Source: Candidatus Latescibacterota bacterium
GTDB taxonomy: Bacteria; Latescibacterota; UBA2968; UBA8231
Assembly (NCBI GenBank): GCA_965203175.1
Contig: OZ241867.1
Location: forward strand, 1,024,001-1,088,000
DNA length: 64,000 bases
Direction: 5' to 3'
Positions 213 through 11,650 of the stretch are shown one piece after another. Made by a program: the position numbers and the translations under genes. The notes beneath the pieces were generated by a model, which was given only the letters and a program-made list of their open reading frames with translations, did not search any database and was not told where the DNA came from. The stretch's first letter is position 1, and every line of letters begins with the position of its first letter.

Positions 213-1208
213 ATGAGCAACGCACTTCTATTGTTTGCCCAAGGGCTGGACGAGGCCGCGCTGCAACGCGCCGTCCCGCTGCCCATCCGGCCAAAGCAGA
301 TCGAGCCGTTGGCATGGCTTGGCGACGAGTTCTCGTTTGACTTGCCACCCGCAGCGCTAGAAGGTGCCATAGAAATCCTGCCGTGCCTCTCAGTCGTCCA
401 CGACGGCGCGTGGGGCTATCAGTTCGCGATAGAATGCGAAACCAAAGCTGGCGATAGCAGCCGGGCCGTCCTCGACCCGATCGGCTCGTTTGTCGAGGCC
501 GTGCAGTCCGGCTTCAGAACTGGAGCCGAATCAGGTGCGACAAACGAAGTGGTCGCAGCGGAAATCGACCTCTTGCGCATCCACACCCCCTTACAAGCGG
601 CCACCCTACACCTGCGCGTCCAAGGCGTCGGCCCCACGGCCCCGGCCTTGCTCTCGGTCTCGGTGCGCCGCAAGGGCGCAGTACCCGCTCCGACGTTCAC
701 TAGCCGAGATATGGCCCTCTCTGTGCCGTCGCAAAGCCAGATGGTTCTGCGGCCCCAATTGGCTTCCCACGTCTGCTCGCCGACCAGCGTCGCCATGCTC
801 CTCTCCTATTACGGCCATAGCGCGGACATCTACGACGTAATTGCTGAGGCACGCCACCAACCCAGCGGACTATACGGCGTGTGGCCGGCCAACATCCACG
901 CCGCTGCTCGCCGGGGTCTCTTGGGCTATCTACTGCACTTTCCCTCTTGGGAGGCAGCGCGCACGCTGCTCGACGCGGGCTTTCCCATTGTTGCCTCTGT
1001 CCGCTACGAGGTGGGCGAGTTGAGCCGAGCGGCCATTGAGCGTACGTCCGGGCACTTGCTCGTCGTCCGGGGCTGCTCGGGAGATACCGTACTGGTCAAC
1101 GATCCGGCCGCAGATGCCGAGATCGCACGGGCGTACGACCTAGCGGAATTCTGCAAAGTCTGGCTGGAGCGCAGCGCCGTAGGCTACGTGCTCTTTCCTC
1201 CGTCGTAA
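213..1208 (+). CDS. Peptidase C39-like family protein
   Basis: VPSQSQM...VCSPTSVAMLL (catalytic Cys), GHLLVVRG (His) and VNDPA (Asp) motifs. Confidence 0.8.
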   Translation: MSNALLLFAQGLDEAALQRAVPLPIRPKQIEPLAWLGDEFSFDLPPAALEGAIEILPCLSVVHDGAWGYQFAIECETKAGDSSRAVLDPIGSFVEAVQSGFRTGAESGATNEVVAAEIDLLRIHTPLQAATLHLRVQGVGPTAPALLSVSVRRKGAVPAPTFTSRDMALSVPSQSQMVLRPQLASHVCSPTSVAMLLSYYGHSADIYDVIAEARHQPSGLYGVWPANIHAAARRGLLGYLLHFPSWEAARTLLDAGFPIVASVRYEVGELSRAAIERTSGHLLVVRGCSGDTVLVNDPAADAEIARAYDLAEFCKVWLERSAVGYVLFPPS

Positions 1209-3095: not shown

Positions 3096-3506
3096 CTATC
3101 GTTCCCGCTTTCTATATACCTTTTCTATGGCGTCTTGCAACAAGCGGTCGAAGTTGACCAAGCGGTTGTAGCGCCGACGGTAGGCATCAACCCAGTTCAA
3201 CGTCCCTCTGTAATATGTCGGCACTGCGTTCATCCGCACGATCTCAGTAGCCATCTCTTCTACGGTGCAGACTAGCTTTATGGAGCTCATCTGGTCGAAT
3301 TCGGCCAGTTCCCGTATCCCGATCGAATCGAAGGAGATGACCGACTTACCATGATGTATCGCTTTCAAGGCAAAAATGCCAAATGCTTCCACGTCTGTGA
3401 TCGGGATCACGCGAAGGCACGCCGCGAACTGTACCCTCATCTCAGCATTCGACAGAGATATTCGGTTGAGGTTCAGGGGTCGTCCGACCCTTTCATTGGC
3501 TCGCAT
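3096..3506 (-). pseudogene. Degenerate C-terminal fragment of a GT4 (GT-B) glycosyltransferase
   Basis: IPITDVEAFGIFALKAIHHGKSVISFDSIGIREL matches the GT4 pattern E-x-F-G-x4-EA-x3-GxPVI-x4-GG-x2-E with substitutions. The N-terminal domain is absent. Confidence 0.5.
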
Positions 3507-3552
3507 GAGTTTCTTCTTATATGCGGCCTCCGCTGGGTACGCGGATAAAAGC

Positions 3553-3813
3553 TCAATCCGCCCTCCGCTTGTCAGCGACGTACTCAGCCAGCACTTCTAC
3601 TGAGTCAAACAGTTCGGCAGTCAGTTCGTCGTCTTCGACGGTGATGCCGAATGCCTCCTCTATGGCGGCGACGATCTCTAAGGTGGCCACTGAATCAAGA
3701 TCCATGCCCCCGCCGAACAGCGCCTCGTCGTCGGGAATTTCGGCAGGGATCACGTCCAACTCAAGCGCAGTGACTATCAGGCACTTGATCTGCACTCTCA
3801 GGCGTTCTGACAT
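3553..3813 (-). CDS. Acyl carrier protein
   Basis: 86 aa, acidic, GMDLDSVATLEIV phosphopantetheine Ser motif and IEEAFGITV. Start overlaps the stop of the S8 fusion. Confidence 0.9.
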   Translation of the reverse strand: MSERLRVQIKCLIVTALELDVIPAEIPDDEALFGGGMDLDSVATLEIVAAIEEAFGITVEDDELTAELFDSVEVLAEYVADKRRAD

Positions 3814-5696
3814 GATTCAGGCTCCTCGGCAAAGTAGTTAACCACCGTATCTACCATCCGCTGCTGGCCTTCCTCTGAGAGAATGGACACCGCCGGTAAG
3901 CTGAAGCGATCCTCGAACCGATGCAGGATACGTACGATCTCTTCCGTAGTCATCGGACGCGGCTTGACGAAGGTTCGCCCGTAAGCAGCGCGGATGTGTT
4001 TTTCTTGGTTGCTCATCGCCAATAGCAGGGTCGGTGCCTTGGCGAAAGCGCGCAGGCAGTCGATGGTGTCTTGGATATACTCGTCGTCATCGATGCTGTT
4101 GACCGTGAGGATACATGCATCCGGCTTAGTGCCCAGCAGAAAGGCCATAGAGGTCAAAGAATGGGTGCGGTGTTCATGCACATCGTAGGGAATGGTGCCT
4201 GACTGCGAGCCAACCAAGATAATATCGGGCCGCTTCTGCTGGCTGAGTTGCCGCAGTTTGTAGTCCAGATAGGGGATGTAGTATTGCAACGGCAGCGACA
4301 CATTAGAGGCGTATCCCATGGGAAAGGCTAGGTCCATGCCAAACAAGGCCGCATGATGCTCGGTGCCGATCTGACCGACCGTGTAGCCGAGGTGCAAAAG
4401 GTGGCGGCGCAGGATCAGTTGTAAGGTGAACTTGCCCTGTTGGGCACTGGTGCCAAACACTCCGAGCACCGGCACGTCGACCGGACCATAGGCAGGCTCG
4501 GCTTGGAGTGCTTGCTCGATGTCGTTGGACGCGACCGAGGGATACGTCAGATGCAGCCCCTTTTTGCGGGCAAGATCATACAGGTCGCCGTATGTGTCTT
4601 GGGGCACGACGAGAAAACTGAAGACGTGGCAGTCGTGCTCCAGTGCGGTCTCAATGGCCGTACGTAACACGTCTTGCTTGCCGATCCGTCCTAACTGATC
4701 GACATAGCCGAGGATTAGTGTATCCGCCTCTCCAAGGATCGAAGCAAGCCGGGGCCGGATATGCACACCCATGTCGGGCAAACCCAGCACCTTACCCGCA
4801 TCCTGGCCCACTAGCCCCTTGCCCACCGGGTCAGCGATACCCGTAATCTCAAAGGCGAGCAAGTCTTGCGCCCGAACCAAGGCGTGCATTTCCTTATTGA
4901 ACGGGTAGAGCGCCGCCTTCTGAATCCAAGTAAAATTTGAGGTGTTGGTTGGAGGCTTCGACACGGCCACCGCGCATGGACGCGTACCTAGGAGTAACTC
5001 CGGCGGCTCTTTCAACCCATTGGCCTGTAATATCTTACGCACTTGTTCCAGTGGTGCCCTTGGATGCGCTTGGCGAATCAAGGCGACGACGCCGGTGATA
5101 TGAGGTGCGGCAAAGCTGGTACCAGATACCATCAGATGTGATGGATCGTTCCAGCAGACCCGCTGGGTATCCCCCCGGGCGACACATTCGATTGTGTGTC
5201 TTGGACGGTAATAATACCCATAGCGTCCGCGCACCTTTCCTCCAGTAACGCCGATGACGTCTGGAAAGACCGCCGGATAGCTCTCGCGCCCGTCGTTGTG
5301 CTCAGCAGCGACAAGGATAACTCCGGCTTCGCGGGCTTGGCGGCAGACTTTAGCAAGTGCATTGCGGAAGGAGACATCGGTGGTGCCCAAGCTGAGGTTG
5401 ACCACATCCATTCGGTGCTCAATAGTCCAGCGAATCGCCGAGAGTAGGGCAGTACCATCGGTTCTCAGAGAACCGTCGAAGATGCGGACATCGTAGAGGG
5501 CCACTGTTGGCGCGATCTGACTGATGATGCCCGCGCAAGCCGTGCCGTGACCAGCGTCAAAATCAGCTTGCGGAAGTACCGAATCCAAGATTACCTCATG
5601 AATCGCGCCGATTTTTTCGTGTGTCGGGTCAATACCTGAGTCGATGATGGCAACACGTACTGGATGATCCGTTTTCGGTGGGTTCGTCAAGAGCAT
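3798..5696 (-). CDS. S8 subtilase fused to a TIGR04066/DUF1611-like domain
   Basis: Intact triad IIDSG / HGTACAG / GTSFAAP in the first ~225 aa. Then KAALYPF...GKGLVGQDAG, VPVLGVFGTSAQQGKFTLQL, GQIGT and PDIILVGSQSG, which are DUF1611/TIGR04066-like. Confidence 0.8.
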   Translation of the reverse strand: MLLTNPPKTDHPVRVAIIDSGIDPTHEKIGAIHEVILDSVLPQADFDAGHGTACAGIISQIAPTVALYDVRIFDGSLRTDGTALLSAIRWTIEHRMDVVNLSLGTTDVSFRNALAKVCRQAREAGVILVAAEHNDGRESYPAVFPDVIGVTGGKVRGRYGYYYRPRHTIECVARGDTQRVCWNDPSHLMVSGTSFAAPHITGVVALIRQAHPRAPLEQVRKILQANGLKEPPELLLGTRPCAVAVSKPPTNTSNFTWIQKAALYPFNKEMHALVRAQDLLAFEITGIADPVGKGLVGQDAGKVLGLPDMGVHIRPRLASILGEADTLILGYVDQLGRIGKQDVLRTAIETALEHDCHVFSFLVVPQDTYGDLYDLARKKGLHLTYPSVASNDIEQALQAEPAYGPVDVPVLGVFGTSAQQGKFTLQLILRRHLLHLGYTVGQIGTEHHAALFGMDLAFPMGYASNVSLPLQYYIPYLDYKLRQLSQQKRPDIILVGSQSGTIPYDVHEHRTHSLTSMAFLLGTKPDACILTVNSIDDDEYIQDTIDCLRAFAKAPTLLLAMSNQEKHIRAAYGRTFVKPRPMTTEEIVRILHRFEDRFSLPAVSILSEEGQQRMVDTVVNYFAEEPESCQNA

Positions 5697-6763
5697 CGTT
5701 TTTTTAATCTGGTTTCACACTGCAAGAGAACCTTTTCTAATATACTTTTCTCTTCAAGGGCTAGTTCTTCTAATTCCTTTTTTACATATTTTATAGATGT
5801 ATCTACTTCATTCTTTTTTTTATATCCTAAGAAAATCCTGAGCATTATCAAACGTAGGTTCGCAACTTTCTTTTCTATTTCAGCATACTTAATTGACAAC
5901 TTTTCAGATGGATCAATATAATCTTTATTTTCCATGTATATAAGTCTGTTCAACATACATTTTTTATGTTCCCATAGTATGTGAATCAATCGAATATCAT
6001 ATCTATGTTTTTTATGTAACAAACAATAAATAAGATAAGAGTATGTTTTCATACCATATATACCATCTTCTGGTGTATCTAATATACGAAATTTTTCAGA
6101 AGTATTATTCGATTCTATATAATCTCGAAGTTGCTCCGAGACAAGATATAGATCAAACTCATAGTGTTTGTTATTTTTATATTTTAATAGACCTATTTTA
6201 GCCATATGATTAGGTGAGTAACTAACTTTCATATATGCCTTTTCAAGGTCTGAGTACTCGATTGTTATATACGCCTTTTTAAAATCGGAGAAATTTAATT
6301 TGGAAGAAACATATTGGCCCATTTTGTTGTATCCGGCAGTATCGAATGTTTCATAAGATAAATCATAGCCATGTATCAATGTTTCATGTATGTATTTTCT
6401 TTTTTCATAATTCGACTTATTAGGCATATAAAACTCATTTAAATATAGCTGTATATAGTAGTTATTATCTATACATTTAATGACAAAGTGAACAATATCC
6501 TCATTTACAAGGGAAATTAAATCACGATCTAACCAGCGTGTTTCCAGTAATGGTGCAGGCAAAAGTCTGTTATTAGGAGGTCGATAAAAATCGATTATAG
6601 GAGTTCCTTTTTGAGTGTGTTTTTTAGAAAAATAAATCTGGATATGTTGGCTGTAGAACCAAGGTAAATATACCTCATTTGTCGCCAATATTGATAAAGA
6701 GAATACAAAGCCTTTTATTGGTGAATTGAGTTCAACCGCAAGTATTTTTCTTTTCTTTTTCAT
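5687..6763 (-). CDS. BtrH-like (papain-fold) hypothetical protein of Firmicutes-type natural-product clusters, very AT-rich
   Basis: LPWFYSQHIQI, YYIQLYLNEFYMP, HETLIHGYD and LWEHKKCM motifs. Start chosen at ATG 6763 after AAGGAG. Only 13 of 60 bases are G/C in 5761-5820. Confidence 0.6.
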   Translation of the reverse strand: MKKKRKILAVELNSPIKGFVFSLSILATNEVYLPWFYSQHIQIYFSKKHTQKGTPIIDFYRPPNNRLLPAPLLETRWLDRDLISLVNEDIVHFVIKCIDNNYYIQLYLNEFYMPNKSNYEKRKYIHETLIHGYDLSYETFDTAGYNKMGQYVSSKLNFSDFKKAYITIEYSDLEKAYMKVSYSPNHMAKIGLLKYKNNKHYEFDLYLVSEQLRDYIESNNTSEKFRILDTPEDGIYGMKTYSYLIYCLLHKKHRYDIRLIHILWEHKKCMLNRLIYMENKDYIDPSEKLSIKYAEIEKKVANLRLIMLRIFLGYKKKNEVDTSIKYVKKELEELALEEKSILEKVLLQCETRLKKRCS

Positions 6764-6927
6764 TTCCTGCTCCTTTCGTGCCAGCCTCCTCACCGTCGGT
6801 CTCTTGGCTGATCCACCGGCGTCTGCGTACCAAACGCAATCGGCGAACGACCTCTTCGGGGGGTTATGAGTATAATAGAAGCTCCGGGTGCTTGGGAAGA
6901 TGTATCTGCATCAGTTATCTGGACCGC

Positions 6928-8643
6928 TTAAGAGGTAGCTTTCGATTCTCCGAAAAGTGATACGTAAACGGGACAATTCCTCATCAATTCCTCGTGACGG
7001 CCAACTCCGACGATACTGCCTTCATCTAGCACAATAATGCTATCTGCATCTATAAATGTAGATAGACGGTGAGCAATTGTGATGGTGGTCCGTCCCTGAT
7101 AATAGGAGCGTAGAGCTGAACGTATCTTGGATTCGGTCTCGTTATCGATAGCTGACGTAAACTCGTCGAGAATGAGAATCGATGGATCTAGCAATAGCAC
7201 TCGAGCCAGAGCCAGACGCTGCTTCTGTCCTTGGGACAACTGAGCTCCTTTTTCTCCTATGTCAGTCTCGTACCCCTTGGGTAGTTCCGCGATAAAGTCT
7301 CCGGCTCCAGCAATCTCTGCCGATTGTTCGACTAAGGCATGTGAACATTCAGGTCTGCCGATTGTCAGATTCTCCCATACCGTTCCAGCGAAGAGAAATG
7401 GATCTTGCTGCATGAATCCAATCTGCTGCCTCAACGAATGAAGGTCGGCTCGGGAAGTATCCATCCCGTCGATGTAAACAGACCCCGTCTGTGGGTCGTA
7501 GAAACGAGGTATCAACTGCGCTAGCGTCGTCTTGCCCGCTCCGCTCCTACCGACTAGAGCAGTGTTTGTTCCTCCTTCTATGGTTAGATTGATGTTTTTC
7601 AGTACATAGTTTTTTTCTAGATACCCAAATGAAACGCTCTGGAACATGACTGTGCCTTGCTTAACGCTAAGCATTTCTCCTCTCATTGGAGATCTTATCT
7701 CTGGCACCGTATCAACAACCTCGAAGTAGCGACCTAGATGCACTCGGAGCACCGGAATCTGCATGGCTAAATCCAGTAGTGATGTTACGGGATTCGAGAT
7801 GTATCCTACATAGGCCGTAAACGCCATATAGGTTCCCAAGCTGAGTTCGCCTGCCAGAATCCTCGTCCAACCGTACCAAGTGTACACCAATACTGCCATT
7901 GCACGCAGAACTGTAAGAGCAACTCCGGCTACTGTCTGCCCTAGGTGCATTCGGAGTTTGACCGTGGCCGACTCCAAGGTTAGATCGCGAATTCTTTGAA
8001 GAAAAATGCTTTCTAAACAGAGTGCTTGTACGGTTCTAATACCTGAGAGAAATTCAATCCTGTGTGATGAGGCCCTGGCATCCAGCACGGCAGTCTGGCT
8101 AGTTTTTTTTGCTATAAATCTCGATATACCAACCGCGATTGCTGCATCCAGAGGCAGCGCGGCAATACTTAGCAAGGCCAATTTCCAATTGATCCAAAAT
8201 AGAATAGGCGGGAAGATGAGCAAGTTGACAACATTCAAGGTACCGCTCATGAGTAATTGAGTCATTCCACCAGCACTGCTCAAGCCATCTCTGGATCGAG
8301 CTGTAAGTTCGCCTACTTTTTTCTTATCAAAGTAGCTGAAGCTCAAGCTGCTCAGATGTTGATATAGTCCATAACCAACCCCGATTCCTACACGCATACT
8401 GAGGTTATGGTCAAAATAGCCGCGCAAATGGCTGATCAATCCCGTCATTACTGCCACGCCGACATTGAAAACAAGGACGAATTCCAGCAGGTTGACACTC
8501 TTGGATGGGTAAACATCGTCGATAAGAATCTTCGTGACGTAGGGTGGTATCAAGGCAATCAGTGCTAAAAGGCCACTCACGGCTACAGACCTTATCATTA
8601 GCCCCTTATACGCTTGGATCAGTGTAAATCCTTTACCGATCAT
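6928..8643 (-). CDS. ABC exporter, fused TMD and ATPase, with no N-terminal C39 peptidase
   Basis: Hydrophobic N-terminal half, Walker A GRSGAGKT, LSQGQKQR signature, ILILDE and IAHRLST. Confidence 0.92.
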   Translation of the reverse strand: MIGKGFTLIQAYKGLMIRSVAVSGLLALIALIPPYVTKILIDDVYPSKSVNLLEFVLVFNVGVAVMTGLISHLRGYFDHNLSMRVGIGVGYGLYQHLSSLSFSYFDKKKVGELTARSRDGLSSAGGMTQLLMSGTLNVVNLLIFPPILFWINWKLALLSIAALPLDAAIAVGISRFIAKKTSQTAVLDARASSHRIEFLSGIRTVQALCLESIFLQRIRDLTLESATVKLRMHLGQTVAGVALTVLRAMAVLVYTWYGWTRILAGELSLGTYMAFTAYVGYISNPVTSLLDLAMQIPVLRVHLGRYFEVVDTVPEIRSPMRGEMLSVKQGTVMFQSVSFGYLEKNYVLKNINLTIEGGTNTALVGRSGAGKTTLAQLIPRFYDPQTGSVYIDGMDTSRADLHSLRQQIGFMQQDPFLFAGTVWENLTIGRPECSHALVEQSAEIAGAGDFIAELPKGYETDIGEKGAQLSQGQKQRLALARVLLLDPSILILDEFTSAIDNETESKIRSALRSYYQGRTTITIAHRLSTFIDADSIIVLDEGSIVGVGRHEELMRNCPVYVSLFGESKATS

Positions 8644-9416
8644 GCATGTGCCACCATCGTTACGTATTCGTACCCAATCCTCTCGGCCAAGACGAAAAAG
8701 TTATACGCAGCGTGTATTGCGAAGCATTCGGTAATTGACCCGCGTTTCTCCATGACATAGCACGTAACTAAGCCGAGCAACAACGCACCTGCCATCTGAG
8801 CCGGAGGATCGTGTAGCAGCGCGAAGACGGCTGTGCATAACAGCACACTGAGAACCCAAGAAAGTTTTGTCCGCAAGGTTTGATATAGAACGCCGCGGAA
8901 GAAAACTTCCTCATGTAGCGGTCCAATCAACACAGCGAGCATTATGTTCTGAATCCCACGGAAGAGCGAAATGCTGAATTCTCCATCAACCCAAAAAGGC
9001 ACCACATCTTTGGGCCAGAGCAATGCGCTAGGTATGGCATAGACAGTTGCTATCGAAAAACCGATGAGACAGGCTCTGAAGATTCGAGATACTGATGGCG
9101 GTCCCAAGCCGATAGAAACGAGGGAAAGACCACAGCATCTCTTCAACATCACGCTTATTACCCAAAGCGAAAACACAGATATGGCGACTTCGTCAAGGCT
9201 AAACGAAACATCATCAAGCTGAAAAGATAGGGGCCAAAAGAGATCAATGACCACGAAGAGAGCGATGGGAACACAAAAGGCCAACGAACCACCAACTAGC
9301 ACTATTAATCCACTGGAAAAACTCAATGCAGTAATGCCTCTATTGGCGCACACTCTGGACGACCTTTCGCTAGTGAATAGTCTCATTGTACGTTGTGGAG
9401 TGCTAGAATGAGTCAC
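8640..9416 (-). CDS. CPBP (type II CAAX/Abi) intramembrane metalloprotease
   Basis: EEVFFRG, FALLH and HAAYN motifs, multiple TM segments, ATGA overlap with the ABC gene. Confidence 0.88.
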   Translation of the reverse strand: MTHSSTPQRTMRLFTSERSSRVCANRGITALSFSSGLIVLVGGSLAFCVPIALFVVIDLFWPLSFQLDDVSFSLDEVAISVFSLWVISVMLKRCCGLSLVSIGLGPPSVSRIFRACLIGFSIATVYAIPSALLWPKDVVPFWVDGEFSISLFRGIQNIMLAVLIGPLHEEVFFRGVLYQTLRTKLSWVLSVLLCTAVFALLHDPPAQMAGALLLGLVTCYVMEKRGSITECFAIHAAYNFFVLAERIGYEYVTMVAHA

Positions 9417-9454
9417 CTTACGATATGCGGTTCAGGTTGCCTAGTGTTGACAGC

Positions 9455-9808
9455 TCACTCGTTTTCTCTGTCCTCGTCGTTCCACCATTCTTTTACAGCT
9501 TCTTTCCCCTCATGCTTGGCGATATCTTGGGCTACTGACGTTATACCTTTGACTACTCCTTTTCGTATGGTATTTGCAAGACCGCCTATTGGGCTGAAAC
9601 CTGGGTCAGACTCTATTTGATCCAGAGCACGGATCGAATCTGAGCGTGCCCAGGCTGCCGCAGCCAGCGAATCCGTGTGGGTAGCTGCTACCGAGCCCGG
9701 TACAGCCCCACAGGTAGGGGAATCGTACTCTAACTCACAGTGGTAAGCCAGTATCAGCCCATTTGGCTGTTGGTGTGTCGGCTTGAAAAGCCGCTTTTTT
9801 ATTGTCAT
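9455..9808 (-). CDS. Small hypothetical protein, candidate precursor peptide (117 aa)
   Basis: AAGGAG RBS lies 6 nt before ATG 9808. Sits between HlyD and CPBP. Basic leader ending LAY-HC, internal GG, amphipathic helix and acidic tail. Confidence 0.65.
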   Translation of the reverse strand: MTIKKRLFKPTHQQPNGLILAYHCELEYDSPTCGAVPGSVAATHTDSLAAAAWARSDSIRALDQIESDPGFSPIGGLANTIRKGVVKGITSVAQDIAKHEGKEAVKEWWNDEDRENE

Positions 9809-9879
9809 CAGCATCTCCTTTCAGAGTTGGTTAGACGTCATCCTAGCACTCCACGTTAAAGGATGAACCAGTATTTGAT

Positions 9880-11151
9880 TCACAGATTAATCTCCGCTTG
9901 GGTACTCGCCATCTCCGCTGACTCTCGCAAATAGAAGTCATGTCTCCCCATCGGCTCCGCCGTCTGCAACAGCTTCTTCCACAATAGCTCTACGATCCGT
10001 CCCCTCTCCACCACCACCTTGACTTCGGCATTCATCCCATACGCCAGCGAATACACCTGCTTCCCATCCCACACCTGTGGATCGAGAATCGACACCTTTA
10101 TTGGATAGACTGCGCCCTCTACGGAGTTTCCCACCACCGGTGCAGCCGACGCCTCTTCCACCGTGCCTTCAAAAACCTTGTATTCCGTATGCGGAAAGGC
10201 TTTCACATACAGACGAGCCAGCTGCCCGATCTCGATCTTGGGCAAGTCGATCTCCTTGACCATAATCCGAGCCTGCCACTCCTCGTTTCCAGCCACTTCG
10301 AGCACGGTTTCCCCGCTTTGGAGACGATCTCCCATCCGTTGCTCCAACTGACCCGTCAGCACGATGCCGGTCGCCGGTGCCCAGAGCGTGTTCTTGGCTA
10401 GCTGGTTTTCTAACCGCAGGCGTTCCTGCTCTATTTTCTCGCGCTGTTTTTCCAAGGTGTGGAGTTCGGCTGTTCGCCCTTCTACGGCCTGAAGCCGCTG
10501 CTGGCTCTGCTCCAGTTCGGCTTCAGCGTCCCTCAGCCAAGCATTCCCCAGCCGCACCGGCAGCAATTGATCCAACGGCTGGCGGACCACACTGACGGAC
10601 AACAGACCAGCCGAGTAAATAGTTTGTTCGGCCACGACCTGCTCTAGTTGGATGCGCATCCGCTCTACTACCAGCTTGGCGTGGGAGACCTCGGCTTGCC
10701 GAATGTTCCGCTCTTGCTCCATCTGTTGCTGAATGGCTCGCTGCTGGCTTTGGTTTACTTCGAGGTCCTTTTCGGCTTGCTGGAGTTGGATCCGCCAGTC
10801 GGTATCATCCAGCGTGACCAACGGCTCCCCCTTCTCTACCTGATGTCCCTGTCGGACGTGTATCTGCTGGATAATCCCCGCAATCTCGGCCTTGACTCGA
10901 TACCGATGTCGAGGCTCAATGACCCCTTTGCTTTCCACGGTCATATCCATACTGAAATACCAACTCAGGACGCCAGCGAGCACCAGCAAGCACCCCACCA
11001 ACACCAGAATCATCAAGAGAAAGGAGCGCACGAAACGGAAGCCCGGCCCGTGGAATTCTTCCCCTATACTCAGGACATTACTACGGCCATCCTGCACCGA
11101 GGAACGTTCGTTTTGCACAAATGCTTGGGTTTCAGCAGGCAGAGACGTCAT
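9880..11151 (-). CDS. HlyD-family membrane fusion (secretion adaptor) protein
   Basis: N-terminal TM, VRQGHQVEKGEPL lipoyl half-motif, coiled coil, LWAPATGIV and GMNAEVKVVV. Confidence 0.9.
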   Translation of the reverse strand: MTSLPAETQAFVQNERSSVQDGRSNVLSIGEEFHGPGFRFVRSFLLMILVLVGCLLVLAGVLSWYFSMDMTVESKGVIEPRHRYRVKAEIAGIIQQIHVRQGHQVEKGEPLVTLDDTDWRIQLQQAEKDLEVNQSQQRAIQQQMEQERNIRQAEVSHAKLVVERMRIQLEQVVAEQTIYSAGLLSVSVVRQPLDQLLPVRLGNAWLRDAEAELEQSQQRLQAVEGRTAELHTLEKQREKIEQERLRLENQLAKNTLWAPATGIVLTGQLEQRMGDRLQSGETVLEVAGNEEWQARIMVKEIDLPKIEIGQLARLYVKAFPHTEYKVFEGTVEEASAAPVVGNSVEGAVYPIKVSILDPQVWDGKQVYSLAYGMNAEVKVVVERGRIVELLWKKLLQTAEPMGRHDFYLRESAEMASTQAEINL

Positions 11152-11182
11152 ATTCTAACTCCACACGCTGAAACGCTTCTCT

Positions 11183-11254
11183 CTCCGACTGAATAGTCGG
11201 AGCCAAACGGATCTCCGGCGCACGAACTGCCCAAGGTTCCTTTTATATAAGGAA
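11183..11254. promoter_or_regulatory. Two inverted repeats upstream of the operon, candidate operator or leader hairpin
   Basis: CTCCGACT-gaat-AGTCGGAG (11183-11202) and TTCCTT-ttatat-AAGGAA (11237-11254). Confidence 0.4.
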
Positions 11255-11456
11255 AGTCCACATAGTTGGAGCTTTTGAGCAACCGCGCATACTGGCACAT
11301 ACGCGGACGCAGCGGCTTCCAAGGCATACTGCACGGCGGAAATAGAGCCGTACAGACCCCTGACAATCCGACACCGAATGAATCGCTGCGCTTCAGCGAA
11401 GCAATCATCCGGCCCTTGATGGAGCTTAAGAGAGCGTAGCCTAACGGCCGAAAATG

Positions 11457-11473
11457 AGGGGGGGGGGGGGGGG
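11457..11473. repeat. G17 homopolymer tract
   Basis: 17 consecutive G in the divergent intergenic region between the HlyD and Nudix genes. Confidence 0.9.
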
Positions 11474-11650
11474 CTAAGTCTTTATTTTTCAATCGTTTGC
11501 AACAAATTGCGGAGTCTTGGGACTGGCAGCAGGATGTCGTCATCGCGGCAGGCTTTGCTAGCGGCCACATCTGCGTCCGGTCCACGACGCGGCGATTGCG
11601 GCCTACGGCCCGTTTGCCTAATGTGAGTATCTCTCCGATGTGGAATAGCG

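Follow-up and report, generated by a model that had tools for sequence, protein, structure and literature searches.

What does a bacterium make with a small open reading frame (ORF) that lies between export genes, close to a subtilisin-type protease fused to a DUF1611-like domain and a dedicated acyl carrier protein (ACP)? This question is raised by an island of eight genes in a Candidatus Latescibacterota bacterium, located in a stretch of 64,000 nt (contig OZ241867.1, positions 1,024,001-1,088,000; assembly GCA_965203175.1), hereafter the window, of a genome of 6.58 Mb. The reading that we hold, with moderate confidence, is a leader-dependent small-protein system in which a leader is removed, the peptide is acylated in an ACP-dependent manner and the product is exported by an ATP-binding cassette (ABC) transporter together with HlyD and TolC. 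The genes of the island, all on the minus strand, are the following:

9880..11151, minus strand: HlyD-family periplasmic adaptor, 423 aa (PF13437, TIGR01843)
9455..9808, minus strand: predicted precursor, 117 aa, with a conserved leader of 22 aa and a core of 95 aa (ribosome-binding site, leader model, homologues); the full ORF, 9455-9814, has 119 aa
8640..9416, minus strand: CPBP (Rce1-like) intramembrane glutamic protease family protein, 258 aa (PF02517)
6928..8643, minus strand: ABC exporter, fused permease-ATPase, 571 aa (PF00664 and PF00005)
5687..6793, minus strand: divergent BtrH/CtaG-fold protein, 368 aa from a GTG, likely start at ATG 6763 (family profile and fold)
3798..5696, minus strand: S8 protease fused to a TIGR04066/DUF1611 domain, 632 aa (PF00082 and PF07755)
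3553..3813, minus strand: dedicated ACP, 86 aa, with Ser41 in D-L-D-S (PF00550)
3096..3506, minus strand: C-terminal remnant of a GT4-type glycosyltransferase, 136 aa (weak Glyco_trans_1_4 match; homology to enzymes of the related loci L005 and L006)

The eight ORFs span positions 3096-11151 of the window, and their coordinates give three stop/start overlaps (8640-8643, 5687-5696 and 3798-3813). The ORF list and the domain calls agree with the gene order and overlaps given in an earlier interpretation made without database searches (the sequence-only reading). The G+C content of the individual island genes is 30-57%, compared to 61-64% in the flanks, which encode sugar-metabolism enzymes. The eight-gene island is real and is compositionally distinct from its surroundings.

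A Small ORF with a Conserved Leader and a Variable Core

An AAAGGAG sequence ends 6 nt before an ATG at position 9808, which gives a product of 117 aa, the size expected from the sequence-only reading; a second ATG lies upstream at 9814. Nine homologues of 105-121 aa (50-84% identity) are present in other assemblies, all called from the start equivalent to 9808. In their alignment the N-terminal 22 residues (M-T-I-K-K-R-L-F-K-P ... L-I-L-A-Y), Cys24 and Glu25 are all invariant, the middle part is variable with D-S-L-A-A-A-like repeats, insertions and deletions, and the C-terminus is a conserved, amphipathic and acidic helix. The ribosome-binding site and the nine conserved homologues show that the small ORF is a genuine, conserved precursor-type gene. 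The protein gave no match in Pfam or NCBIfam and no usable match in a Protein Atlas search. Its 95-aa core is poor in cysteine, with one conserved Cys.

A hidden Markov model (HMM) of the leader was built from 20 hand-picked seeds, chosen by reading the small ORFs next to fusion genes in related loci from public genomes (77 loci in addition to the window; individual loci carry L numbers). Among 28,625 stop-to-stop frames this model recovered 43 ORFs at E≤0.01, including 23 that were not seeds, and the reversed sequences of these frames gave no matches at E≤1. All 43 ORFs are on the same strand as the fusion gene. Their leaders of 19-23 aa follow the consensus M-x-x-L-x-K-(K/P)...(V/I)-x-A-Y-x-x-E, with Val or Ile at position -4 in 41 of the 43, Ala at -2 in 37, Tyr (39) or Cys (4) at -1 and Glu or Asp at +3 in 37; in 41 ORFs the leader, counted from Met through Tyr, has 19-23 residues. 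The precursor of the window matched with an E value of 1.3e-6 and was the sole match within the 64 kb.

The cores behind this leader are hypervariable in sequence and length, and the leader is kept while the cores differ at loci from several phyla whose fusion proteins are 38-60% identical. Short cores of 46-66 residues (16 ORFs) are rich in Cys, Trp and Tyr and mostly occur with a six-bladed beta-propeller, an AhpC/TSA-like protein, a rhodanese and a resistance-nodulation-division (RND) pump. Long cores of 95-138 residues (27 ORFs), including that of the window, are rich in Gly, Ala, Ser and Thr and mostly occur with CPBP and tetratricopeptide repeat (TPR) proteins.

A profile of 35 leaders had a single match in the whole genome of the bacterium, which is the small ORF. 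In 151 genomes of the phylum the profile gave 38 matches in 24 genomes, and a comparison of coordinates placed 37 of these within approximately 10.2 kb of a fusion-gene match; the single outlying match is weak (E 4.5e-4) and comes from a genome without a fusion match. Recovery by this profile is not independent of the loci used for training and the sensitivity of the leader search is low, and the informative part of the result is the near-absence of matches elsewhere. Taken from the leader family and its genome-wide specificity, the small ORF belongs to a hypervariable precursor family with a shared leader, in agreement with its earlier designation as a precursor. The locus has the layout of RiPPs (peptides that are made on ribosomes and modified after translation), in which a conserved leader and a variable core are encoded beside processing enzymes.

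In two related loci (L071, 7932-9917, and L022, 13787-15371), up to four tandem genes for proteins of 101-125 aa are found beside the precursor gene. These proteins carry an N-terminal zinc-ribbon-like motif (C-P-x-C-G ... C-K-x-C-G) followed by two hydrophobic helices and are candidate immunity proteins or membrane partners.

A QhpE-like Protease Fused to a DgcN-Fold Domain

The 632-aa protein combines a Peptidase_S8 domain (PF00082, 91.9 bits with a cut-off of 21.8, residues 13-224) with a DUF1611 domain (PF07755, 40.7 bits with a cut-off of 25, residues 406-612), the fusion that the sequence-only reading had proposed. The S8 half covers approximately residues 1-230 and the TIGR04066/DUF1611 (DgcN-fold) domain approximately residues 255-632. 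The best family for the S8 half is QhpE (NF049966), with 145.2 bits over model positions 1-212 of 219, which is below the cut-off of 165. The catalytic triad (Asp19, His50 and Ser194) is invariant in an alignment of 19 relatives and no signal peptide is visible in the fusion protein sequence. The S8 half is predicted to be a cytoplasmic QhpE-like protease. The C-terminal half aligns with positions 2-360 of the 361 of TIGR04066 at 110.8 bits, under the cut-off of 200, and is best classified as a distant TIGR04066 relative.

In an AlphaFold2 model of the fusion protein (predicted local distance difference test, pLDDT, 76.3) the N-terminal half matches subtilisin (BPN'). A Foldseek search aligned the C-terminal half over 384-397 columns with 2obn, 2g0t and DgcN (7xrj) at target template modeling (TM) scores of 0.71, 0.69 and 0.64, respectively; identity to the DUF1611 structures is 14-16%. 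A sequence search of the PDB with the C-terminal half returned only 2g0t, with an E value of 0.068. A G-T-x-x-x-x-G-K-x-T loop is conserved in this half and Pfam describes the C-terminal domain of DUF1611 as P-loop-like. The function of DgcN, a D-glutamate N-acetyltransferase, is taken from the title of PDB entry 7xrj ('N-acetyltransferase DgcN') and from a secondary mention (PMC12363236). Because the fold is shared with DgcN, which was deposited as an N-acetyltransferase, we propose that the C-terminal half may be an enzyme of this type.

The fusion characterises a large family. When the full fusion protein was used as a query, PF00082 and PF07755 were both present in all 120 matches listed (56-92% identity). 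At E≤0.001 the DUF1611-like half alone retrieved the representatives of 1323 clusters made at 50% identity, 449 of them at E≤1e-30, and the S8 half is also carried by 126 of the best 150 representatives; many of the other 24 are fragments. A search for longer fusions of the DUF1611-like half, among proteins of 1107-3160 aa, found none, which is weak evidence. Prediction of a complex between the fusion protein and precursor residues 1-60 gave a score of 0.55 compared to 0.01 for the best control, with an agreement between runs of at least 58% of contacts and a partner pLDDT of at least 39. In the benchmark, 58 of 80 solved complexes and 2 of 110 mismatched pairs attained this mark. Passing scores of 0.60 or lower came from both of these pairs and from only 7 of the 80 solved complexes; since our own alignments were used, these counts are approximate. 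The prediction is a weak hint that the protein contacts its presumed substrate.

A Predicted Carrier Protein and a BtrH-Fold Protein without the Canonical Triad

The 86-aa protein matches PF00550 with 33.7 bits (cut-off 20.8) and its attachment Ser is kept in all 55 of the 55 homologues adjoining fusion genes, which argues for a true phosphopantetheine carrier, as the sequence-only reading had it. TIGR04069 was not matched at E≤0.01 and is not among the 14 NCBIfam families matched in the window. Of the partners that this reading expected elsewhere in the genome, two phosphopantetheinyl transferase (PPTase) genes and TolC-type proteins (14 OEP/TolC domain matches in seven open frames) were found, all unlinked to the island. 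AMP-ligase candidates exist in the form of six AMP-binding matches, none of them linked. A CcpM-type radical SAM enzyme was not recovered: no radical SAM gene is present in the island and the best match to CcpM (TIGR04068) in the genome scores 83.4 bits against a cut-off of 500 and lies approximately 450 kb away.

The 368-aa protein had been described as BtrH-like. Alone, it matches no Pfam family at E≤10, including BtrH_N (PF14399), and the designation stands by family profile and fold. BtrH_N is matched at E≤1 by 20 of 30 members of its family (best 2.8e-6), and hhalign of the family against canonical BtrH_N+DUF4872 proteins gave a probability of 61% (E 8e-5), pairing H-E-x-L-I-x-G-Y-D with H-Q-x-I-x-A-G-Y-D-D. 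An AlphaFold2 model (pLDDT 74.6) was compared with the PDB by Foldseek and matched AziU2/U3 (8gs1, E 1.8e-6), CtaG (9qvq, 2.4e-5) and CcbD (7yn2, 1.2e-3) over the whole length of a bipartite, papain-like plus helical fold, with TM scores of 0.44-0.59 and a probability of 1.00. A sequence search of the PDB with the BtrH-like profile gave chance-level matches only. PMC12865890 describes CtaG as a papain-like ligase with the triad Cys11-His128-Asp144 that makes an amide bond with an acyl group received from a carrier protein, and names BtrH and AsbE as structural homologues with donors bound to peptidyl carrier proteins (PCPs). CcbD has been deposited in complex with a PCP domain (PDB 9dkr). In the family of the 368-aa protein the position of the nucleophile is occupied by Gly or Tyr, at low alignment confidence, and Ser34 (29 of 30), His136 (28 of 30) and Asp144 (29 of 30) are kept; the canonical BtrH_N+DUF4872 proteins of sister loci keep Cys46, His157 and Asp175. 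As modelled, the 368-aa protein is BtrH-like by fold and lacks the Cys-His-Asp triad.

The gene for this protein has a G+C content of 0.303 compared to 47-57% for its neighbours. Its nearest relative among the loci (L029, 74% identity) is likewise encoded by a gene with a lower G+C content than its surroundings. The downstream flank of locus L005 is syntenic with the window at 85-95% identity. In this locus the ACP gene is followed by a BtrH-like gene of native G+C content, a further ORF and a full glycosyltransferase gene, so that approximately 2.8 kb (7346-10180) separate the ACP from the glycosyltransferase segment, versus 47 nt in the window (3507-3552). The 136-aa ORF is 71-80% identical to the last approximately 136 aa of the 366-367-aa glycosyltransferases of L005 and L006. 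Only the C-terminal third of the enzyme is left, as the earlier term remnant implied; a glycosyltransferase as working part was rejected, and the ORF is probably a deletion scar. A native BtrH-like gene has probably been lost downstream of the ACP and a foreign copy of 30% G+C gained upstream. The loss and replacement of this gene suggest that its function is kept under selection.

The Gene Set Is Conserved in Related Loci

To count the neighbours of the fusion gene, the ORFs of the 77 loci and the window were clustered, family HMMs were built and all frames were rescanned. The count covers neighbours within 9 kb of the 62 copies of the fusion gene that have 6 kb or more of upstream and 4 kb or more of downstream sequence; the window, with 3.8 kb on one side, was excluded. 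An ACP and an ABC exporter were each found near 58 copies, HlyD near 43, CPBP near 24 (mostly copies with long cores), a TPR protein near 21 and a radical SAM protein near five. The set of genes that the sequence-only reading singled out is therefore kept together in related loci, contrary to the outcome by which that reading would have been refuted. The absence of radical SAM enzymes noted in that reading applies to the locus itself and not to the family.

A gene for a carrier-dependent transferase lies near 48 of the 62 copies and encodes a divergent BtrH-like protein in 31, a BtrH_N+DUF4872 protein in 13 (PF14399, E 1.2e-13) and a protein with a PCP and a condensation domain in four. These three types replace one another at a single position after the ACP. 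The last type, a protein of approximately 900 aa, replaces the BtrH-like protein directly after the ACP in L023, L056, L058 (12165-14879) and L064; its N-terminal 360 aa gave nothing usable in Pfam, and the same holds for c32, one of the ORF clusters.

Export Proteins and CPBP

The adaptor protein matches HlyD_3 (PF13437) with 49.1 bits (cut-off 22.2) and TIGR01843, type_I_hlyD, with 105.5 bits, under the cut-off of 208.65. The ABC exporter aligns with positions 134-689 of the 694 of the HlyB model TIGR01846 (401.6 bits, under the cut-off of 725.55). Because the alignment begins at model position 134, the exporter has no N-terminal C39 or C39-like peptidase domain. The CPBP protein (PF02517, 67.2 bits with a cut-off of 22.4) is a candidate immunity or processing factor.

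Comparison with Known Systems

The closest comparison is with the Cys-rich peptide system of clostridia and Paenibacillus. According to PMC10731318, the SacP23 cluster of Paenibacillus contains a CLI_3235 precursor, a TIGR04068 radical SAM enzyme, TIGR04066 and TIGR04069 proteins, a separate subtilisin and an ABC transporter, and expression of the whole eight-gene cluster in B. subtilis yielded an active product of 3404 Da with an N-terminus that was blocked to Edman degradation. The system is characterised only to this active, N-terminally blocked product. In the literature searched CcpM is found as an annotation only, TIGR04066 is likewise treated at the annotation level only, no paper ties DUF1611 to RiPPs, and none of relevance ties BtrH and an ACP to them; papers on biosynthetic clusters and RiPPs of Latescibacter were surveys. 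The island shares with this system a TIGR04066-type domain over the full length of the model, a small carrier-type protein, a subtilisin and an ABC exporter. The CLI_3235-type leader printed for SacP23 (M-R-K-L-V-K-R ... I-E-A-F; PMC10731318) resembles the leader of the window type when compared by eye, and the five relatives mentioned above have a PapB/CcpM-like radical SAM enzyme and Cys-rich cores. In contrast, the protease and the TIGR04066-like domain are fused in the island and score below the curated cut-offs (110.8 versus 200 bits for TIGR04066), the carrier is an ordinary PF00550 ACP in place of TIGR04069, and none of 10 precursors, that of the window included, matched TIGR04065 at E≤10. 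The island has in addition HlyD, CPBP and a BtrH-fold protein, lacks a radical SAM enzyme and encodes a long core. The kinship with the TIGR04065/66/68/69 system that the sequence-only reading proposed therefore stands for TIGR04066, for the similar gene set in Paenibacillus and, by eye, for the type of leader, and not for TIGR04065 and TIGR04069; the likeness of the core to Cys-rich peptides does not hold, since the core is Cys-poor.

The S8 half is closest to the protease that acts in the maturation of quinohemoprotein amine dehydrogenase (QhpC leader, QhpE, the ABC transporter QhpF and the radical SAM enzyme QhpD). QhpE is a cytoplasmic subtilisin that, according to PMC7876137, cuts off a leader of 28 residues before ABC export, and the same order of cytoplasmic cleavage and ABC export is assumed here. 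Unlike in the Qhp system, dehydrogenase subunits, QhpD and QhpG are absent, the substrate is hypervariable and not an enzyme subunit, and the S8 domain, which scores under the cut-off of 165, is fused to DUF1611 and paired with an ACP.

The 368-aa protein shares the two-domain fold of the ligases CtaG, BtrH, AsbE and CcbD and is encoded beside an ACP, and canonical BtrH_N+DUF4872 proteins stand at the same place in sister loci. It differs from these ligases in that its family has no nucleophile Cys and keeps Ser34/His136/Asp144, and in that the presumed acceptor is a ribosomal peptide instead of a small molecule or a second carrier. DgcN shares the fold of the whole C-terminal half and the conserved G-T-x-x-x-x-G-K-x-T loop. 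However, identity is only 14-16% and the domain of the island forms one protein with a protease and has an ACP as its partner, whereas DgcN stands alone with a racemase.

Bacteriocins with a double-glycine leader are exported by a peptidase-containing ABC transporter (PCAT) with a HlyD-type accessory protein, and CPBP/Abi proteins provide immunity. The island resembles such loci in its leader-bearing hypervariable peptide, its HlyB-like ABC exporter, HlyD and the CPBP neighbour. It differs in that a C39 domain is missing from its ABC exporter, A-Y-x-x-E stands in place of G-G at the end of the leader, cleavage is assigned to a cytoplasmic S8 protease and an ACP-dependent module is added.

A Proposed Route from Precursor to Product and Its Alternatives

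Building on the observed domain identities, conserved gene set and leader family, we infer where the leader is cut, that an acyl group is transferred, how the ACP is loaded and unloaded, which kind of group is involved and what activity the product may have. The precursor of 117 aa would be made with its N-terminal leader of 22 aa, which has a basic start followed by V/I-x-A-Y-x-x-E. The QhpE-like S8 domain would cut off this leader in the cytoplasm, at or just after A-Y. The DgcN-fold domain would then cooperate with the holo-ACP and, in most loci, with a BtrH/CtaG-fold or PCP-condensation transferase, so that one of the amines of the peptide, most probably that of the N-terminus set free by cleavage, receives an acyl or aminoacyl group. 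Once capped, the product would be exported by way of the ABC transporter that lacks C39, HlyD and a TolC encoded elsewhere in the genome, and CPBP may protect the producer or aid processing. Since the fusion protein and the ACP are the pair found universally, the DUF1611 half is favoured as the transferase that acts on the peptide; the alternation of BtrH-type and condensation proteins favours these as the transferase, with the DUF1611 half as loader. We infer N-acylation of the peptide with the blocked terminus of SacP23 as one circumstantial experimental hint. A further step, to which we give tentative credence, is that the loci constitute a ribosomal-thiotemplate hybrid class. In this class, the fusion protein would cut a universal A-Y-x-x-E leader and present the fresh N-terminus to an acyl-ACP, ribosomal peptides of up to approximately 140 residues would be the substrate either of a condensation domain that stands alone or of a branch of the CtaG/BtrH proteins that lacks Cys and possibly uses Ser-His-Asp, and one leader would serve interchangeable cores, either short and rich in Cys, Trp and Tyr or long and rich in Gly and Ala.

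Several findings weigh against leader removal followed by ACP-dependent acylation. The product, the cleavage site and the acyl group have been observed for no member of the family, and the block at the N-terminus of SacP23 could have other causes. Neither the island nor the conserved gene set includes an obvious enzyme for loading the ACP (an adenylating enzyme, acyltransferase or ketosynthase), and the nearest of the six AMP-binding matches in the genome is approximately 420 kb away. The gene for a transferase was not found near 14 of the 62 copies. In the 30 members of the family of the 368-aa protein, no Cys is conserved in the N-terminal domain and the Asp of CtaG and BtrH is apparently missing too; its best structural match, AziU2/U3, is functionally unrelated to transacylation according to PMC12865890. 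The curated equivalog models QhpE, TIGR04066, HlyD and HlyB all score under their cut-offs. A core of 95 aa with only one conserved Cys is long for a RiPP. A leader match (E≤1e-3) is present near only 31 of the 62 related copies and in only 24 of approximately 73 sampled genomes with a strong fusion match. Finally, the genomes are related, so that these are not independent counts, and the same loci served to build the leader model and the HMMs of the families.

Three other explanations were weighed. The loci could make a non-ribosomal unit, assembled by the ACP, the DUF1611-like domain and a BtrH/CtaG-fold or condensation protein in the manner of closthioamide, butirosin or petrobactin, which is then attached to a side chain or the C-terminus of the peptide as in siderophore-microcins, or is released alone. 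CtaG-fold ligases do act on small thiotemplated units, as described in PMC12865890, four loci have a PCP-condensation protein, and the Glu or Asp at +3 (37 of 43) and the Cys at +2, which is invariant in the subfamily of the window, could be attachment or recognition sites. Nevertheless, this explanation is on the unlikely side: genes for adenylation, ATP-grasp and other building-block enzymes are not conserved in the loci, the fusion of the protease to DUF1611 argues that both act in sequence on the same peptide and the blocked end of SacP23 points to the N-terminus. Alternatively, the system might do no more than cleave and export an unmodified, bacteriocin-like protein, with the DUF1611-like domain and the ACP serving as a nucleotide-dependent chaperone, gate, regulator or leader-binding adaptor. 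The missing ACP-loading enzyme, the absence of the canonical Cys from the BtrH-like protein of the window and the P-loop-like description of the DUF1611 C-terminal domain fit this explanation. The long cores rich in Gly, Ala, Ser and Thr, together with CPBP, also recall unmodified class II bacteriocin loci. We regard simple cleavage and export as unlikely, as it does not account for the attachment Ser of the ACP that is invariant in 55 of 55 proteins, for three types of carrier-dependent, amide-forming enzymes that alternate after the ACP, or for the blocked N-terminus of SacP23; moreover, among the solved DUF1611 enzymes only one carries a functional name, and this is N-acetyltransferase.

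The last alternative, that the small ORF is not the substrate and its leader-like motif is a by-product of the shared ancestry of neighbouring DNA, could draw on the leader matches near only half of the related copies and on a leader model built from ORFs that were picked beside fusion genes. It is very improbable. The motif is kept in several phyla although the cores are unrelated in sequence and length, reversed frames gave no matches, only one of the 38 genome-wide matches lies away from a fusion gene, the ORF has a ribosome-binding site and nine conserved homologues, and the printed CLI_3235-type precursor of a Firmicute has, by eye, the same type of leader. Leader removal, ACP-dependent acylation and export remain our preferred reading of the locus.

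Distribution, Variants and Neighbouring Genes

Among the 151 genomes of the phylum, 92 have a match to the fusion protein at E≤1e-20; reading of the table indicated that approximately 73 of these are strong and 19 are S8-only or fragments. Up to nine fusion matches occur in some genomes, and in the genus of the window a match is present in 12 of 21 other genomes and absent from nine. As judged from these matches, the fusion family is patchy and multi-copy. The related public loci are mostly from Latescibacterota, with others from Gemmatimonadota, KSB1, Melioribacteraceae/Rosettibacter and one metagenome-assembled genome of Bacteroidetes.

Locus L005 occupies the same chromosomal site as the island. 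The flanking genes are 95% identical, whereas the fusion proteins share only 82% identity and the two clusters diverge in their upstream halves, in which the window has HlyD, CPBP and a precursor with a long core and L005 has a short Cys-rich precursor along with a propeller protein, a rhodanese and a thioredoxin-like protein. This suggests, from comparison of the two loci, exchange of cassettes at one chromosomal site.

A variant with a core containing 11 Cys residues and a PapB/CcpM-like radical SAM enzyme was observed in L075, L077 and L080 (Melioribacteraceae, Rosettibacter and Bacteroidetes). The radical SAM proteins of this variant score 209.9 and 176.5 bits, under the cut-offs; the latter value is that of the L080 type against CcpM (TIGR04068, cut-off 500). 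In this variant the fusion gene is preceded by a gene for a protein of 521-522 aa without an assigned family, and in L080 a streptomycin-adenylyltransferase-like nucleotidyltransferase is encoded after the ACP. Copies of the fusion gene with a single in-frame TAG, TGA or TAA were seen in long-read assemblies (genomes G018, G023, G033, G037, G039, G041, G053, G065, G071, G087 and others); these could be pseudogenes or assembly errors.

An additional ORF of 145 aa (11148..11585, minus strand), with an odd, Cys/Pro-rich composition, overlaps the start of the HlyD gene by 4 nt. It has no match in Pfam or NCBIfam, and tblastn matches of 40-58% are found at the same position in five related loci (L004, L006, L007, L008 and L065). 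It may be a genuine small gene or, alternatively, a non-coding sequence that is conserved. On the other strand, 2 kb from the island, a protein of 331 aa (213-1208, plus strand) matches Peptidase_C39_2 (E 2.8e-17), a family of the same clan as BtrH_N. This protein was considered as a part of the system and set aside; it is encoded on the opposite strand and is 85% identical and syntenic in L005, so that it looks like flank.

Significance of the Island and Its Relatives

The island is a fused, true-ACP, BtrH-fold or condensation-assisted and mostly radical SAM-free form, with new leader and core classes, of a system for which curated HMMs and a single study of heterologous expression are the only sources. 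The combination of S8::DUF1611 and ACP represents one of the larger peptide-maturation families without assigned chemistry. The locus and its relatives supply a usable definition of this system, consisting of a leader motif and a core gene set, and provide evidence for the interchangeability of three unrelated carrier-dependent, amide-forming enzymes. The compact version described here, with eight genes, a single precursor and no radical SAM enzyme, suits a heterologous test of the function of TIGR04066 and the ACP. If ACP-dependent capping is true, ligases of the CtaG/BtrH type and acyltransferases of the DgcN type would be tied to ribosomal peptides, and the leader and the protease would form a general pair for engineering exported, N-capped peptides.

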